Positions 2,599-61,606 of a DNA stretch of 64,000 nucleotides are shown in pieces. The DNA comes from Escherichia phage V18: the sequence record NC_041937.1, one strand, 5' to 3'. The translations under genes and the position numbers were made by a program. Numbering within the stretch: position 1 is the stretch's first letter; each line of letters starts with the position of its first letter. The notes below the pieces were generated by a model, which was not told where the DNA came from, searched no databases, and saw nothing but the letters and a program-made list of their open reading frames with translations.

Positions 2599-2979
2599 TT
2601 AATCGTAGTGTGCCAAAATCTCTCCATCGTTGCAAGTTCCCTCTACAAAGTTATGAAGATTCATGCACTCATCTTGATAGAAGAATTTACCGCTTTTCAG
2701 CCGTAGGCCAAACAACTCCGCATCTCCACGATGGCAAGCCTCTACAAGTTCATAGATTTCATACGGCAACTCTCCGTCGTCATGGAAGAACCCAGCCTTA
2801 TCGTTGACATAGATGAAGAAATAATCACTGCTGTCGCAAGCGTCTAATATTTCAAACCAGATTTCATCTACATCTTTTTCTCGGATATCGATCACGCAAG
2901 TGGAGCTGCATTCGTACTCCTTCTCTGGCTCCTCGGTCAATACCACCCGGTAGTTTCCCCGCTTACCTACTTTAGCCAT
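2599..2979 (-). CDS. hypothetical acidic protein
   Basis: 126-aa ORF with plausible RBS spacing and terminator downstream. Confidence 0.4.
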   Translation of the reverse strand: MAKVGKRGNYRVVLTEEPEKEYECSSTCVIDIREKDVDEIWFEILDACDSSDYFFIYVNDKAGFFHDDGELPYEIYELVEACHRGDAELFGLRLKSGKFFYQDECMNLHNFVEGTCNDGEILAHYD

Positions 2980-2988
2980 ACAACCCCC

Positions 2989-4173
2989 TTAAGCTTTAGC
3001 TAAAATGGCGCTAAACTCTTCACCAAACTCTTTTACAATCTTCATCAGGTTTGGGTACGCTTTGATCAGTTGAGCAACGATCTTGTCACGCCCTTTACCG
3101 ATAAGCAAGGCATTTCCTAAGGCATTAGGTTTCATCATCGCCATAAAGACTGAGAATACAAAATCTCGGTTCTCGTCCTTGAAATTTTCCCAAAGGAAAT
3201 CGAGGAAGTTTGCCACACAGCTAACAAGATCTTCGTCAGAGATACTTGCATTTTCCATCATATTGCGAATAGCGATACACCCTTCAGATCCAAGAATCCA
3301 CAAAATGTCTGGCTGCTTAGGACCTACGTATTCTTTGCAACCCCCTGCCATAATCCGACCGATTTCCGGTAAGTTGCGTTTCTTGGTGTGGTAGGTCCAG
3401 ATCTCTACCGCTGCAGTGTGACCAATAGCCCCTTGCAGAAGAACACGGGCCATAGCGTCAGAAATAATACCGCTGTCAAAATCGTGCAAGATGTCAGATG
3501 CAGCAACCCAAGATCGCGGTGTGGCAAAAGATGGACAATTAATCTCAGCCATAGCCTCATAATTATCGATAGCTGATGGAACTCTTTTCAGATACCCAAT
3601 TACAGAGGAGTGCACCCCATTAAGGAATGCGTAGTCCTCAATAAACACCTCTGCATTGCTTGTAACTTCTACAATGATAAAGCGGTTAGCCAGAGGAGCT
3701 TCGAGCGCCGAGAGAACCGCACCATCTGTAGAACGGTTACCCGCAGCCACAAAAACAGAGCCTTTAGGGAATGCATAGGTGCCGCACTTGTGGTCGAGCA
3801 TAATCTGCATTGCAACCTTTTGCAGATAGTTATCTGCATGAGTAAGCTCATCCAGAAAGATAATCCCGCTCCAGTCCGGATCTGCAGGCCAAAATTCTGG
3901 AATTGCAAACACTGTACGTGTAGTTCCATCCGCTTCTACAGGGATAGGTAGCCCAGATAAGTCGGCAGGATCTTTATCCGACAGTCGCACGTCAACCAGG
4001 TTGTCATCTCGCTCACCGAACATATTATCGGCGATCTGCTTCATTACCTGGCTCTTCCCCACACCCATTGGTCCTAAAATCAGGACAGATCGGTTATGAC
4101 GCTGGGCAAACTGAATGATAGCTGGCAACTCACGGACAGTGATTTGACCACTTTCAAATACGTTTCTTGACAT
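2989..4173 (-). CDS. MoxR-like AAA+ ATPase (CobS/AAA_5-like)
   Basis: 394-aa ORF; Walker A LILGPMGVGKSQ, Walker B IIFLDELTHA, overall MoxR-like layout. Confidence 0.7.
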   Translation of the reverse strand: MSRNVFESGQITVRELPAIIQFAQRHNRSVLILGPMGVGKSQVMKQIADNMFGERDDNLVDVRLSDKDPADLSGLPIPVEADGTTRTVFAIPEFWPADPDWSGIIFLDELTHADNYLQKVAMQIMLDHKCGTYAFPKGSVFVAAGNRSTDGAVLSALEAPLANRFIIVEVTSNAEVFIEDYAFLNGVHSSVIGYLKRVPSAIDNYEAMAEINCPSFATPRSWVAASDILHDFDSGIISDAMARVLLQGAIGHTAAVEIWTYHTKKRNLPEIGRIMAGGCKEYVGPKQPDILWILGSEGCIAIRNMMENASISDEDLVSCVANFLDFLWENFKDENRDFVFSVFMAMMKPNALGNALLIGKGRDKIVAQLIKAYPNLMKIVKEFGEEFSAILAKA

Positions 4174-56485: not shown

Positions 56486-56531
56486 TTTAAAGGTTCCTTT
56501 TGTTTATATATGTTTAAAGTATAACTGAAAG

Positions 56532-56608
56532 TGGTCTCCACGGAGTGATTCGAACACTCGACCTCCTGATCCCAATGGTTTATCTCTACCAAGCTGAGCT
56601 ACGCGGAG
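56532..56608 (-). tRNA. tRNA-like gene, possible anticodon TGG (Pro), anticodon stem does not pair as read
   Basis: Good acceptor stem, TTCGAAT T-loop and encoded CCA; putative anticodon loop ATTGGGA but flanking stem unpaired. Confidence 0.45.
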
Positions 56609-56619
56609 TATTTATTATT

Positions 56620-56694
56620 TGGTGGCCCTGGGTGGAATTGAACCACCGTCTGGCGATTATGAGTCGCTTGCTTGAACCTTCCAGCTACAGGGCA
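56620..56694 (-). tRNA. tRNA-Met/Ile-like (anticodon CAT)
   Basis: T-arm GGTGG-TTCAATT-CCACC, anticodon loop CTCATAA, encoded CCA; position 1:72 mismatched. Confidence 0.55.
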
Positions 56695-56770
56695 TGGTGC
56701 TGATAGCAGGACTCGAACCTGCAACCTATTGATTACAAATCAATTGCACTACCAATTGTGCTACATCAGC
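56695..56770 (-). tRNA. tRNA-Thr (anticodon TGT)
   Basis: Clean cloverleaf: 7-bp acceptor, D-stem GCAC/GTGC, anticodon stem ATTGA/TCAAT with loop TTTGTAA, T-arm GCAGG-TTCGAGT-CCTGC, CCA encoded. Confidence 0.7.
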
Positions 56771-56775
56771 AAAAA

Positions 56776-56860
56776 GGTGCTAGGTGATGGAATCGAACCA
56801 CCTATGTATTCAACGACCAATAGATTTACAGTCTACACCGCTACCTCTACGGGATAACTC
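56776..56860 (-). tRNA. tRNA-like sequence, Tyr-like anticodon arm (GTA) with long variable region; no acceptor stem found
   Basis: Anticodon stem-loop GTAGA-CTGTAAA-TCTAT and T-arm with TTCGATT loop present; 5' and 3' ends do not pair. Confidence 0.3.
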
Positions 56861-56867
56861 CCCAATT

Positions 56868-56942
56868 TGGCACCCCGTACTGGACTCGAACCAGTGTCAA
56901 CGGCTTAGAAGGCCGCTGCTTTATCCACTAAGCTAACAGGGC
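56868..56942 (-). tRNA. tRNA-Arg (anticodon TCT)
   Basis: Acceptor GCCCTGT/ACGGGGT (with G-U pairs), anticodon stem GCGGC/GCCGT with loop CTTCTAA, T-arm ACTGG-TTCGAGT-CCAGT, CCA encoded. Confidence 0.65.
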
Positions 56943-57038
56943 ACTGGGTGGCTTTCTTTTACACCTTAGCCGCCAGAAAAGGTGGGAGACCATGTTTACA
57001 ATATTACACTGTTAAGCAAAGTTTGTCAAGAAAATATT

Positions 57039-57377
57039 TTAGCTATTGCTAACAGGTTGTATTTCTGTGGTAAATGGCATAAAAGGTGCTGGTTTTTCAG
57101 CCTCTTCTACTACCACCTCTTCCTCTTCACCAAACATCTCATCATATTCTTCCTGCATTCGGTCTGCCTTATCAAGAACATACTCTGCAATGCTTTGACG
57201 AATATTTTGTTTGGTTTTCGGGTCCAACATCAGCTCTCTTAAAACTTTGTGAGCTTCTGGAACCATCGCTATAAAAGATTCCTTCATATCAAGGATGTTC
57301 TTCTCTAGCTGAATGGCGTTGGACTCCTCTTTCAGAGGTCTGCCTCTACGGCGACGCTTTTTAGTTGTATCCGCCAT
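57039..57377 (-). CDS. AT-hook-like DNA-binding protein
   Basis: Start moved to ATG 57377 with GGAGGA RBS; N-terminus MADTTKKRRRRGRPLKE contains an RGRP AT-hook-like motif; acidic C-terminus. Confidence 0.4.
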   Translation of the reverse strand: MADTTKKRRRRGRPLKEESNAIQLEKNILDMKESFIAMVPEAHKVLRELMLDPKTKQNIRQSIAEYVLDKADRMQEEYDEMFGEEEEVVVEEAEKPAPFMPFTTEIQPVSNS

Positions 57378-57721
57378 GTTTCCTCCATTATCACGTGATA
57401 GGTGGATTTTATCACAGCAAATACTGATTGTCAAGTTCGCCGCAGGGGTGTATTCCCTGCGACTTGCCCAGCGTCCTGGACCAGCAAGACCCAACAAGTG
57501 GGTTACCAGAGCACATTACCGCGCTTTGGCTCGACCTTATTACAGGTTGGCTGGGGTCACATCGTCATGTGCTGGCTGCCCCTACCATTTTAAGTGTGGT
57601 GCACTATCAAGCCCTCTAAGGGGAACTCAGTCTTCTCCGAACCCTGTTTCAAAACATCCGGAGATAAAGCCATCAAATTCATCTTTAAATCGGATATTCA
57701 TCATGATACACGAAAACAACC

Positions 57722-57964
57722 TCATTGTAAAGCACAAATAAATAAAACATACTTAATTTGTTTGTTATCAGGCTCAGGGTAGAAGTAGAAGATCTTGCTA
57801 TCACCGATCTGAACACCACCATCCCAACAGCATAGCCCATAACCCGTATTCATACAAGCTAAGTCGTTGGCAAAATCTATTGCATCATCCAGTGCACGAA
57901 ATTCACCTTCATCTTCTAAATAATCCTCATTCATGGAACGAAAAACGAGCTTAACCTTAAACAT
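57722..57964 (-). CDS. hypothetical protein
   Basis: 80-aa ORF. Confidence 0.3.
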   Translation of the reverse strand: MFKVKLVFRSMNEDYLEDEGEFRALDDAIDFANDLACMNTGYGLCCWDGGVQIGDSKIFYFYPEPDNKQIKYVLFICALQ

Positions 57965-58819: not shown

Positions 58820-58924
58820 AGCTGCCTCCTCTTCAAGTTATAGAAAAACTCACTGTATCGCTTTGTAACGAGCTTTTCTATCAAACTGGTGCGATTGCCT
58901 TACCTGGTATAGTTTATATAGCTG

Positions 58925-59190
58925 TGGAGCGATTTAGGGGCCTTCTTGTCCGTTTCCACACATAAACTTCATCCAAGCTCGCGCGGGAGACTCTCAACCG
59001 ACTCCTTACGGCGCTGGCAAGCTTTCGTCGGTGGTCCACATCAGTGCTCGGCCTTTGGCCTGCGCTATCGCTTCGCTCCCACACATGTTAACAGACCTGC
59101 ATGTATGCACTTCTGTTATTGTGTGCACCCGGGAGGCCCGGCATCTCGCCCCTCGTAGCGAGTGCCAATGAAGGGCCGACACTACCCGTA
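58925..59190. other. GC-rich non-coding island, possible structured RNA or origin-associated element
   Basis: About 260 bp visibly richer in G+C than flanking DNA; several short hairpins (CCGGG-AGG-CCCGG, CTCGC-n8-GCGAG); only ORF is a low-complexity 70-aa frame without RBS. Confidence 0.3.
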
Positions 59191-59320
59191 GTAAGTAATA
59201 AATTTAAAACATAGTACTTAGGATCTAGTATATTCTACATAAGTTAAGTATATGTACTTAGTACCATAAGTACTAGATCTTTTATTTTTTATTATTTAGT
59301 TATTTTAGTTATATTCTTTA

Positions 59321-59383
59321 TGTGTCCGTATCACGGACAGTTAGTGTCCGTATGACGGACAGTAGTGTCCGTATCACGGACAG
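59321..59383. repeat. three tandem 21-bp repeats, each containing the palindrome GTCCGT-ATC/ATG-ACGGAC (iteron/operator array)
   Basis: Units at about 59323, 59344 and 59365, read directly from sequence; AT-rich region with inverted repeats GATCTAGTA/TACTAGATC (59222..59279) lies just upstream. Confidence 0.6.
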
Positions 59384-59457
59384 TTACTAACCTCTGTTCC
59401 ATAGCGAACATAAAACATACGAATCCTTATAGTACAGATATTTAAGTTTTTACTGGT

Positions 59458-59808
59458 CTAACCAGTTGTTGACATTCGAATAACTTCTTCTGGTGGCAAA
59501 ACTTTGGAAAATGTGCATCTTTTACCTCTCCCTTGTGTGGATATTTCAACCACTCCTGCACATTCTAAAGTTTTAACGCACGCTGCTGCTTTTGTTTTCT
59601 TTATCCCAATATCTGCTGCAATTTTCCTTGTGCTGGGCGTGAAGCGTGAATTTCCTCCAAGCTTATACCAGTTGTGCAGGTAGCAGTATACGATCTTGTC
59701 ATATAAGTCAAGAACAACAACCTCACCAGTTGTGTCATTCAAAACTTTTGACATAGACAGTATTTCAAGGGGGACTTTAAGATATAGCAGCTTATCCCCA
59801 TCTTTCAT
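59458..59808 (-). CDS. winged-helix/HTH DNA-binding protein
   Basis: 116-aa ORF; STRKIAADIGIKKTKAAACVKTLECAGVVEI resembles wHTH recognition region. Confidence 0.45.
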   Translation of the reverse strand: MKDGDKLLYLKVPLEILSMSKVLNDTTGEVVVLDLYDKIVYCYLHNWYKLGGNSRFTPSTRKIAADIGIKKTKAAACVKTLECAGVVEISTQGRGKRCTFSKVLPPEEVIRMSTTG

Positions 59809-59855
59809 ATCTCCTGATTCTCCTTGTGTGGCAATTTTCTTTAAAATAGCAGGGA

Positions 59856-60410
59856 TTACTCCCCGCTGTCAATAGCAAGACTCATTGCAATACGGTATGC
59901 CTCTTCTAATGGTAAGAGTCTCCCCCACACATCCCAACCGACATCAAACTGCCTGCCAAACAACTGCTGTGTGGTTCCGTGAGCATGACCGAACAGTTGG
60001 ACCGATCCGTGAGGCTTTCTGTTCCACTTTGCAAACTGGTAATGGCTCATACAGATCAAATTCTTGTTGTGGCGAAGCTCGTAATAATCTACAACCTCAT
60101 GACCGAACTCTTTCATAATTCTGACAGTCGTCCTTGTGTCATGGTTACCACGAACAAGAATAATATGTCCGTTCAACATATTTAGAACATCTGGGAGCAA
60201 TTTGTTAATATTCTTATCATTAGTGCACGCAATATCTCCTAAGTGAAACACAGTGTCTGCAGGTGACACAACAGAGTTCCACTTGGTGATGATCCCCGCA
60301 TTCATACTGTCAAGATTGTGATCATACTGAGATCTGTGTTTTTGACATGAGTCAAACTCCATGACCCGCTGGTGGAGAAAGTGTGTGTCGCTTGTTACAA
60401 AGTATTTCAT
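59856..60410 (-). CDS. calcineurin-like metallophosphoesterase (RNA-repair-type phosphatase candidate)
   Basis: Start moved to ATG 60410 with GAGGA RBS; motifs DTHF, GDI and GNHD in canonical order. Confidence 0.6.
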   Translation of the reverse strand: MKYFVTSDTHFLHQRVMEFDSCQKHRSQYDHNLDSMNAGIITKWNSVVSPADTVFHLGDIACTNDKNINKLLPDVLNMLNGHIILVRGNHDTRTTVRIMKEFGHEVVDYYELRHNKNLICMSHYQFAKWNRKPHGSVQLFGHAHGTTQQLFGRQFDVGWDVWGRLLPLEEAYRIAMSLAIDSGE

Positions 60411-60417
60411 ACATTCC

Positions 60418-60885
60418 TCATTTAAGTTTAATGCAGTTTTTAAGCTGGCGTTCCATACGATCCACAACCCTGTCTGGAACATCATGAATGCTTTTACTAC
60501 CATGGCGGTTTTCAACCACGATTACGGTATAACTATACCCATGACTGATCGCCATGTCAATATATTCTTGCACATATTTTTCTTTTGTAAATGTATTACT
60601 TACCACGATACGGTCGTATCCCATACGCATCATATCTTCTACGTTATCTTTGCACCATTTTGCTGCAAGTGTTACTTTACTTGCATCCCAGTTGTAATTT
60701 CCATCATCGTCGTACCAGAACATGTCGTTCTCAAAATGTGGATACAGACCTTCTAAAGATAGCGCACTTGCCAGTGTTGATTTGCCAGACCCTGGTAGAC
60801 CACGCACGATATATAGCATTTTAGACATAGTAATCCTCCGTTTTAATTTCAACGATAGTATACCTAACTGTTTTGTTAATTTCAA
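60418..60885 (-). CDS. P-loop kinase (polynucleotide kinase-like)
   Basis: 155-aa ORF; Walker A GLPGSGKST at N-terminus as in T4 Pnk-type kinases. Confidence 0.6.
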   Translation of the reverse strand: MKLTKQLGILSLKLKRRITMSKMLYIVRGLPGSGKSTLASALSLEGLYPHFENDMFWYDDDGNYNWDASKVTLAAKWCKDNVEDMMRMGYDRIVVSNTFTKEKYVQEYIDMAISHGYSYTVIVVENRHGSKSIHDVPDRVVDRMERQLKNCIKLK

Positions 60886-60946
60886 GTGTTGACACTAGGT
60901 TATTTGTGTGGCAGGATAGACTGACAAAATGACAAATGAGGAACGT

Positions 60947-61606
60947 ATGATGAAGTATTTTAATGCAGACGACCTAGTTGACAAAGGTCTTGTAACCAGC
61001 AGATATTACACAGATCTTGGGTTAAAGATCTATAAATATGCCAGAAAAGTATTTTACAACAATTTATGGCATTTGTCCCCTCGTTTACTGGAGTGCCGAG
61101 GCATTGTTGTCGGTAATGAAGGAAATGTTGTGGCATGGCCCTTCACAAAAGTGTTTAACTTGGGAGAAAACTCCACCAACCTGTCTGACAATAAGCTTGT
61201 GACGGCGGTAGAGAAAAAGAACGGATTCCTTGGTGTGGTATCATCTCATAAAGGTGAACTATTGTTCTCAACAACCGGATCTCTTGATTCTCCATATTGT
61301 AACCTCGCAAAGGAAACCATCCAGGAGCAATGTGGTAATTTAGATCTTATCAAGAAGGTTATGGGCAATGAAAACATGACATTCATGTTTGAAATTTGTC
61401 ACCCTTCAGATCCGCATATTGTTCAGGAAGATCATGGCGCATATTTGATAGGTTGCAGGTATAATGATTCTGGAATAATGCTACCAGAGGCAGCTTTAGA
61501 TGGGATTGCCAAATACCTTGGTGCAAAACGTCCTCACACTGTGCGTGAAATTCCGTTCAGCTATGCAAAAGAATTGGCTGCAGAAACAAGAGGTGAAGGT
61601 ATATGA
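60947..61606 (+). CDS. putative RNA ligase / nucleotidyltransferase
   Basis: Start moved to ATG 60947 with GAGGA RBS; candidate motif I EKKNGF; assignment tentative. Confidence 0.4.
   Translation: MMKYFNADDLVDKGLVTSRYYTDLGLKIYKYARKVFYNNLWHLSPRLLECRGIVVGNEGNVVAWPFTKVFNLGENSTNLSDNKLVTAVEKKNGFLGVVSSHKGELLFSTTGSLDSPYCNLAKETIQEQCGNLDLIKKVMGNENMTFMFEICHPSDPHIVQEDHGAYLIGCRYNDSGIMLPEAALDGIAKYLGAKRPHTVREIPFSYAKELAAETRGEGI

Follow-up and report, generated by a model that had tools for sequence, protein, structure and literature searches.

The closest characterised homologue of the protein considered here is RepA of PLE, a satellite of Vibrio cholerae; its N-terminal domain is deposited as PDB 4RO3 (Barth et al., NAR 2020, PMC7145576). 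During ICP1 infection, RepA is required for PLE replication and is sufficient for it together with the PLE origin (PMC7145576). EMSA and genetics established that RepA binds semi-palindromic tandem iterons, and the iterons are required for replication (PMC7145576). The origin of PLE1 contains three of them, each of ca. 30 bp (PMC7145576, PMC8263062). The ICP1 nuclease Odn reuses the RepA DNA-binding domain to cut the PLE iterons (PMC8263062). A dimeric winged-helix N-terminal domain is also used by the staphylococcal RepA_N plasmids (pSK41, pTZ2162; PDB 4PT7, 4PQL, 5KBJ), where it binds direct repeats that contain inverted sub-repeats round a central A/T segment (PMC7145576). In these plasmids, the iterons are located inside or upstream of repA.

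The lambda origin features four ~20-bp dyad-symmetric iterons, each of which is bound by a dimer of the winged-helix domain of the O protein. The AT-rich region directly after the iterons melts when the nucleoprotein complex is formed. The origin is situated inside the O gene, the C-terminal domain of O recruits P-DnaB, and deletions arise via recombination between the iterons.

The window analyzed here, i.e. the whole 64-kb stretch of DNA, derives from an rV5-like myovirus of the genus Vequintavirus (Escherichia phages). It contains a 640-bp intergenic region that, judging from its sequence, we are inclined to regard as a replication origin of the iteron type, served by an initiator with a DNA-binding domain only. 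The repeats in this region are, with high probability, the binding sites of the adjacent winged-helix protein. A “repeat_region” is tagged over the array in three GenBank records (nomine, naam, naswa), and no published description of the array, of the AT-rich tract or of an origin in rV5-like phages was found. The features of the region are collected in Table 1.

Table 1. Features of the proposed origin region, in window coordinates.
Feature	Position	Strand	Sequence or remark
Conserved GC-rich non-coding element between AT-rich tract and next gene	58930..59195	.	~60% GC, 91–96% conserved
AT-rich tract, proposed DNA-unwinding element	59196..59320	.	lowest GC of the composite genome
Iteron adjoining the AT-rich tract (copy D)	59323..59339	.	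TGTCCGTATCACGGACA
Middle iteron, hybrid of ancestral copies B and C after a 21-bp deletion	59345..59361	.	TGTCCGTATGACGGACA; from comparison with four-copy relatives
Iteron nearest the winged-helix gene (copy A)	59366..59382	.	TGTCCGTATCACGGACA
Spacer between stop codon and array	59389..59457	.	poorly conserved; 78% identity in the Aya lineage
Winged-helix gene, 116 aa, DUF6945/HTH_36 type, proposed iteron-binding protein	59458..59808	-	
Predicted sigma-70-like promoter before the winged-helix gene	59843..59872	-	TTGACA, 18-nt spacer, TATTTT, extended -10 TG; 10/12 matches in consensus scan

The 1.1 kb around the array is 97–99% identical to many Vequintavirus Escherichia phages (top match vb_EcoM_bov10K2, MT884008.2), and the winged-helix gene and the intergenic region are present in all 117 of the 117 matching Vequintavirus phage records. 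The composite genome referred to below (~131 kb) is the window joined to the remainder of the genome of the closest relative. On the minus strand, genes for a polynucleotide kinase-like ATPase and a metallophosphoesterase precede the winged-helix gene, which is followed by the 640-bp non-coding stretch. Beyond this stretch are a gene for a 192-aa protein without assigned function, small ORFs, tRNA genes, the gene for the large terminase, and structural genes. The array marks the boundary of an early-looking three-gene block with a long unit whose last genes are late ones; in the genome as a whole, the main point of divergent transcription is at ~60886–60928.

The array consists of three palindromes of the form TGTCCGT-N3-ACGGACA, each having perfect 7-bp arms and a 3-nt center. 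It begins 75 bp beyond the stop codon of the winged-helix gene, on the 3' side of that gene, so its adjacency to this gene, as claimed in the earlier note, was correctly called, as was the presence of tandem palindromic units. When up to two mismatches were allowed, the pattern occurred only at the three array sites in the 64 kb (0.15 expected by chance), and none of 100 shuffles yielded three matches. No further copy with one mismatch or fewer was found elsewhere in the composite genome. A search of 5,426 complete E. coli genomes returned no match to the array, which is therefore not a borrowed host operator, and a scan of IMG/VR for CTGTCCG-N5-CGGACAC returned only ~120 unrelated single chance matches.

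Two details of the earlier description required revision. The units had been given as three of 21 bp; three are indeed present here, with a start-to-start spacing of 22 and 21 bp, but the ancestral array is, on comparison of the relatives, one of four copies, which most relatives still retain. Four copies (A to D) at fixed positions and with spacings of 21, 21, and 22 bp occur in rV5, RudolfGeigy, SYGMH1, the divergent Aya lineage, and several metagenomic contigs. The window, bov10K2, nomine, and FFH2 have three copies each. The deletion junctions differ among these, and a copy was thus lost several times independently by recombination between the repeats. In 13 of the 30 best records, the region is longer by 21–25 bp, a difference in length that is consistent with four copies. 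The second detail is the palindrome sequence: the dyad is as described, but TGTCCG-N5-CGGACA is its invariant core. Both half-sites, TGTCCG and CGGACA, are nearly invariant; copy C and one copy A have a C in place of the T at base three of the left half-site, and this is the sole change. Variation is found in the 5-bp centers (TGATA, TGAGA, TCACG, CCACG, CTACG, TAATA, CAATA), and the junctions between palindromes are invariant (CTAC, CATC, CTAAC). The array can be read in two registers, as units of TGTCCG-N5-CGGACA or of GGACA-N4/5-TGTCC; either is an alternation of half-sites about one helical turn apart.

The sole match to the array in the plasmid collection was CP057073.1 (102607–102728, four copies), a 137.5-kb “plasmid” from an E. 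coli isolate from pooled cattle faeces. Its size and its single array match suggest that the complete genome of an rV5-like phage was deposited as a plasmid; a carrier state or contamination might account for this. Several Logan metagenomic contigs (L130, L131, L137) stop inside or just past the array, and tandem repeats evidently break short-read assemblies. The GenBank record MG065672.1 begins inside the array.

Promoter P76 is annotated in the rV5 RefSeq record at the position equivalent to that of the promoter in Table 1, and the quality of this predicted promoter makes early expression of the winged-helix gene plausible. In Pfam, the 116-aa protein scored 27.1 bits against DUF6945 (PF22182; cut-off 28) and 25.1 bits against HTH_36 (cut-off 25), and there was no match to Phage_rep_O or RepA_N. 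DUF6945 was matched at E ≤0.01 by 22 of 22 family members. PHROGs assigns the protein to phrog_12838, “replication initiation protein”, and the gene carries the same label in RefSeq; it is named “putative transcriptional regulator” in many GenBank records. The length is 116 aa in all relatives, and the winged-helix domain takes up the whole of it: a C-terminal domain that would recruit helicase, primase or replisome is absent. Single-sequence AlphaFold prediction gave a pLDDT of 38, and an alignment-based model was used instead. The gp77-like protein encoded downstream had no Pfam, PDB or informative PHROG match, and there is thus no evidence that it supplies the missing C-terminal function.

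Direct homologue searches confined the exact family of the 116-aa protein to Vequintavirus. Distant relatives were found only by a full HMMER search (1.8 billion representatives) and by profile searches. The profile obtained from them retrieved 22 proteins, which fall into three groups: the 116-aa Vequintavirus proteins, proteins of 182–217 aa with a C-terminal extension, and Henunavirus-like proteins of 105–114 aa. One group of small homologues matches the Pfam entry wHTH-PRTase_assc (“wHTH-PRTase associated”). In the homologues of 195–217 aa (P0011, P0020, P0022, P0023), the C-terminal extension ends in an acidic tail, which terminates in ...PF in P0011, P0022, and P0023 (e.g. EDPDAPF, YYDTGEPF) and in ...DDEAIL in P0020. 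The ...PF tails may resemble the C-terminal tip of bacterial SSB, a recruiter of replication proteins.

PDB 4RO3 and the 116-aa protein were matched with an E-value of 1.8e-6 when the single sequence was used and of 3.4e-12 when the family profile was used; the latter match covered almost the full length. A tblastn search with 4RO3 of 50,697 phage records retrieved only ICP1 Odn, a second ICP1 ORF, the Vequintavirus protein (33–35% identity over 83% of the query), and gp115 of the Pseudomonas phage phiPMW. The PLE system and the phage locus thus share a homologous DNA-binding domain and three or four tandem semi-palindromic repeats, which are non-coding and near the gene. They are also associated with a replisome of the ICP1/rV5 type: among DNA polymerases, that of rV5 has its closest counterpart in ICP1, the phage with the replisome exploited by PLE RepA. 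However, PLE RepA has a C-terminal domain, whereas the Vequintavirus protein is the N-terminal domain alone (116 aa). The iterons are ~30 bp long in PLE but 21–22 bp in the phage array. PLE is a helper-dependent satellite, whereas in the present case the element belongs to the lytic phage itself, and its origin function is putative.

An AT-rich unwinding element of the kind found at iteron origins would be represented by the AT-rich tract (59196–59320), which directly adjoins the array. With window sizes of 80, 100, 120, and 150 bp, the lowest-GC stretch of the composite genome falls in this tract (17.5–23% GC vs. 21–26% for the runner-up); the GC fraction of 59200–59299 is 0.21. The earlier note had placed an AT-rich stretch with inverted repeats beside the array, and this description holds: in addition to the GC minimum, the inverted repeat GATCTAGTA (59222–59230)/TACTAGATC (59271–59279) was found, and it is one portion of a more extended inverted repeat (imperfect, 25 nt; 59196–59220/59267–59291). 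The tract also contains three GTACTTA/TAAGTAC motifs (at 59214, 59254, and 59267) and two tandem copies of TTTAGTTAT (59295–59312). The sequence GATCTnTTnTTTT at 59276–88 is one exact match to the 13-mer consensus of E. coli oriC, which is only weakly above chance; with one mismatch allowed, the count of this consensus in the window was no more than that expected by chance. Neither a DnaA box (TTATNCACA, one mismatch or fewer) nor an IHF consensus was detected in the intergenic region.

The cumulative GC skew of the composite genome has its global minimum 1.5 kb away from the array, at window position 60868, where the main point of divergent transcription is also located. This switch in skew coincides with the change in gene orientation and is thereby confounded, so that it lends weak support to an origin. 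The same switch of skew and orientation was seen in the 2013 genome paper on rV5, according to which the origin could not be defined from skew analysis.

In Aya, the most divergent lineage compared, identity is 95.6% in the array and 95–96% in the AT-rich tract vs. 87–93% in the three flanking coding regions, and it is lowest in the spacer (Table 1). The AT-rich tract is 98–99% identical in SYGMH1 and rV5. Because the array and the AT-rich tract are better conserved than the flanking coding sequences, selection acts on the non-coding DNA itself; by this comparison, the array is under purifying selection.

These elements may be combined in the following scheme. The 116-aa protein would be made early from its own sigma-70-type promoter. 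Dimers of its winged-helix domain would bind the tandem dyad repeats just past the gene (four in the ancestor, three here) through the TGTCCG-N5-CGGACA core. The spacing of 21–22 bp amounts to about two helical turns and would place all dimers on one face of the DNA, making a single nucleoprotein complex possible. This complex would destabilise the adjoining 125-bp AT-rich tract, predicted to be the least stable duplex of the genome, and the T7-gp4-like primase-helicase and the family-A polymerase of the phage would then enter at this tract. The helicase-primase of rV5 is of the T7 gp4 type. Such helicase-primases need no loader to get onto melted DNA. Binding of the protein to the repeats, melting of the AT-rich tract, and a start of replication at this site are all inferred.

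So arranged, the element resembles an iteron origin of the lambda or RepA_N type, minus one defining feature of the latter. In common with lambda, dyad-symmetric iterons adjoin an AT-rich region, but the lambda origin is within the O gene, whereas the phage array is outside coding sequence. In common with the staphylococcal RepA_N plasmids, a winged-helix protein is paired with repeats that have inverted sub-repeats. However, the similarity of the staphylococcal proteins to the 116-aa protein is not significant (E about 0.9), the array is 75 bp downstream of the phage gene rather than inside or upstream of it, and the 116-aa protein has no DnaD-like C-terminal domain. As the C-terminal domain is missing, the element was not placed in the RepA_N initiator family.

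Homologues of the protein have repeats of their own. In phiPMW (NC_041880.1), three tandem 21-nt repeats (GATGGTGGACAAAATGTCCTA) are found at 2337–2413, 85–160 bp upstream of gp115. Each contains the inverted pentamers GGACA-AAA-TGTCC (three found vs. 0.15 expected). These repeats, which are not mentioned in the phiPMW paper, are a candidate origin or operator of phiPMW; next to them, immediately before gp115, is a tract rich in GATAGA. Like the Vequintavirus locus, gp115 is a small homologous winged-helix protein adjoined by three tandem repeats with the same GGACA/TGTCC pentamers, and it is flanked by polynucleotide kinase and RNA ligase genes on one side and by tRNA genes on the other. It differs in that the pentamers are in the opposite sense (GGACA-AAA-TGTCC), that the repeats precede the gene, within a divergent promoter region, and that its identity to the 116-aa protein is only 23%. 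In Henunavirus phages, a 23-bp repeat (TCAATTTGAGCATAGGC) is present twice after an AT-rich tract, just upstream of the winged-helix homologue. A four-copy palindrome array comparable to that of Vequintavirus was not found beside the 182–217-aa and Henunavirus-like homologues. That related proteins have different or related arrays next to them is as expected of cognate pairs of protein and site. By eye, five AGGTAC(A) motifs were seen at 3250–3520 of L139, in the 500 bp of divergent non-coding DNA that precede the gene of a 195-aa homologue, and two of them are within a 21-bp direct repeat (GGGACTnnnAGGTACA) beside an AT-rich run.

The earlier note had left the region as either a replication origin or a multi-operator control region. 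The origin side of this claim is the better supported, by the homology to the RepA N-terminal domain, the unique and conserved array, the AT-rich tract, and the parallel in phiPMW. The operator side fared less well: the array is away from the promoter of the gene, and a scan of the intergenic region for sigma-70-like promoters was negative. Since the array is 3' of the gene rather than at its promoter, simple autoregulation does not explain it. Several observations nevertheless count against an origin. One is that the protein, at 116 aa, lacks the C-terminal domain by which helicase or primase is recruited in initiators of the RepA_N type; another is that the small homologues of Henunavirus and phiPMW have their repeats in promoter regions, a location that fits regulators as well as initiators. 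For these two reasons, control of transcription stays a serious rival. The confounded skew switch and the negative search for DnaA boxes and IHF sites also speak against an origin.

In one form of that rival, the array-bound protein would stop early transcription of its own operon from running on into the gp77-like gene, the tRNAs, the terminase, and the structural genes; in another, the array controls a promoter in the AT-rich tract. Taken jointly, these two forms are possible but rather unlikely, at perhaps one chance in a few. The winged helix is of the generic kind seen in MarR/ArsR/CodY-type regulators, and many GenBank records carry the regulator label cited above. The repeats of Henunavirus and phiPMW are between divergent genes, beside or over the start of the homologue's own gene, and one homologue group matches wHTH-PRTase_assc. 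The location of the array between the early-looking block and the late unit, with no intrinsic terminator, would suit a block to read-through, and the record of one relative has a software-predicted promoter annotated in the AT-rich tract. However, a scan of 58820–59457 for promoters of the sigma-70-like type revealed none, and a candidate TATAAA-like box near 58915 is not conserved. Moreover, control of transcription leaves unexplained why an AT-rich tract conserved better than the genes should be attached to the array, and among characterised homologues, the closest is the domain of an initiator rather than a repressor. The roles of origin and of transcription control can also coexist, as in iteron plasmids.

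A role in packaging is improbable. The array would then be the pac site, or a late rolling-circle origin linked to packaging, and the winged-helix protein would be a small-terminase-like or accessory factor. Repeat arrays are typical of pac and cos binding sites. A headful mechanism and circular permutation are reported for the vequintaviruses, in which the pac site is unmapped, and the large terminase gene is on the same strand ca. 4.3 kb downstream of the array. The stand-alone ICP1 homologue is near a pac site and a presumed late rolling-circle origin. However, the protein is homologous to the DNA-binding domain of an initiator and matched no terminase family, and the large terminase gene is not adjacent, being separated from the array by tRNA genes and several ORFs. 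The ICP1 data are as follows. At 2852–3262, near the left end of the Vibrio phage ICP1 (MW794140.1), a further homologue of the PLE RepA N-terminal domain is encoded, which stands alone (136 aa). The nearby 1.3-kb non-coding region, which contains the pac site and the presumed late rolling-circle origin, has a single GGGACATTTTGTCCC palindrome (128–142) followed by an AT-rich run. This single palindrome may be a mere terminator or operator, which weakens the parallel.

There is only a very small chance that another host or phage protein binds the sites and that their adjacency to the winged-helix gene is coincidental, given that gene and array occur together in 117 of 117 Vequintavirus records, that the distant homologue in phiPMW has its own adjoining array with the same pentamers, and that the array was unmatched in the E. 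coli genomes. Smaller still is the chance that the 3' end of the winged-helix mRNA is where the palindromes act, as RNA or ssDNA hairpins (terminators, processing sites or stability elements) instead of as duplex sites for a protein: the array, just 3' of the gene, does fold very stably as a single strand of either sense (-22 kcal/mol, z about -6), but no U-tract follows any palindrome on either strand, the terminator scan of 58820–59457 was empty, the arm sequence is the same in all copies beyond mere complementarity, substitutions break pairing inconsistently by strand, and the same pentamers are upstream of the phiPMW homologue's gene rather than at its 3' end.

The origin reading can be extended to other phages, although this extension is speculative and we consider it somewhat doubtful. 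A stand-alone protein resembling the RepA N-terminal domain and lacking any domain for replisome recruitment would be the origin-binding protein of a wide range of lytic myoviruses, namely the rV5-like, phiPMW-like, and ICP1-like phages and their metagenomic relatives, acting on GGACA/TGTCC arrays by an AT-rich tract and relying on a self-loading primase-helicase. If this were true, the iteron-binding domains of PLE RepA and ICP1 Odn would derive from a family of phage initiators; the link to these two proteins suggests a source for the initiator domain of the satellite. If the 116-aa protein does start replication with no recruiting domain, it would count as a minimal initiator of an unusual kind. 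Phages of the rV5 type have been isolated widely, and therapeutic and biocontrol cocktails make use of them; their replication origin has never been mapped. The present candidate is compact and testable, with the protein gene, three or four iterons, and the unwinding element within ~700 bp, and it could serve as a portable, phage-dependent replicon.

The GC-rich element on the other side of the AT-rich tract is one of only three GC islands in a genome of 43.6% GC. It may be part of the origin, an RNA or another DNA element; in the extended reading given above, it might be part of the mechanism, e.g. as a primer or regulatory RNA. A 56-aa ORF is annotated in it in rV5, but the differences among relatives are almost all non-synonymous, and the ORF is therefore probably not coding. 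In rV5, 18 nt are absent at the tip of one predicted hairpin in the element. When gathering and E-value thresholds were applied, Rfam returned only a sub-threshold match to rli43 (27.9 bits vs. a gathering score of 100) in the intergenic region. No covariation or compensatory changes were found in the element, and either strand gives only modest z-scores on folding. Another non-coding island rich in GC (57438–57639, 56% GC) is located between the ORFs 57039–57497 and 57722–57964; the two islands have no sequence similarity.

The small winged-helix gene is found beside genes for polynucleotide kinase, T4-type RNA ligase 1, and metallophosphoesterase, which make up a tRNA-repair set, in several myovirus lineages (L129, L138, L139, L141, L142, phiPMW as L145, and 59458–61606 of the window). 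The winged-helix gene often has tRNA genes next to it, and its usual location is at a divergent intergenic region. Eighteen records (MG0656xx) named “Campylobacter phage” (host Campylobacter jejuni) are 96–98% identical across the region to rV5-like phages of E. coli, and their host labels look doubtful. The tRNA cluster of the window (56494–56980) is smaller than that of the closest relative. About 400 bp (bov10K2, L128 3256–3656) are gone, which truncates tRNA-Tyr, and a 6-nt replacement disrupts tRNA-Pro. ARAGORN and Rfam identified only tRNAs for Met, Thr, and Arg in the window, whereas five to seven are annotated in its relatives.
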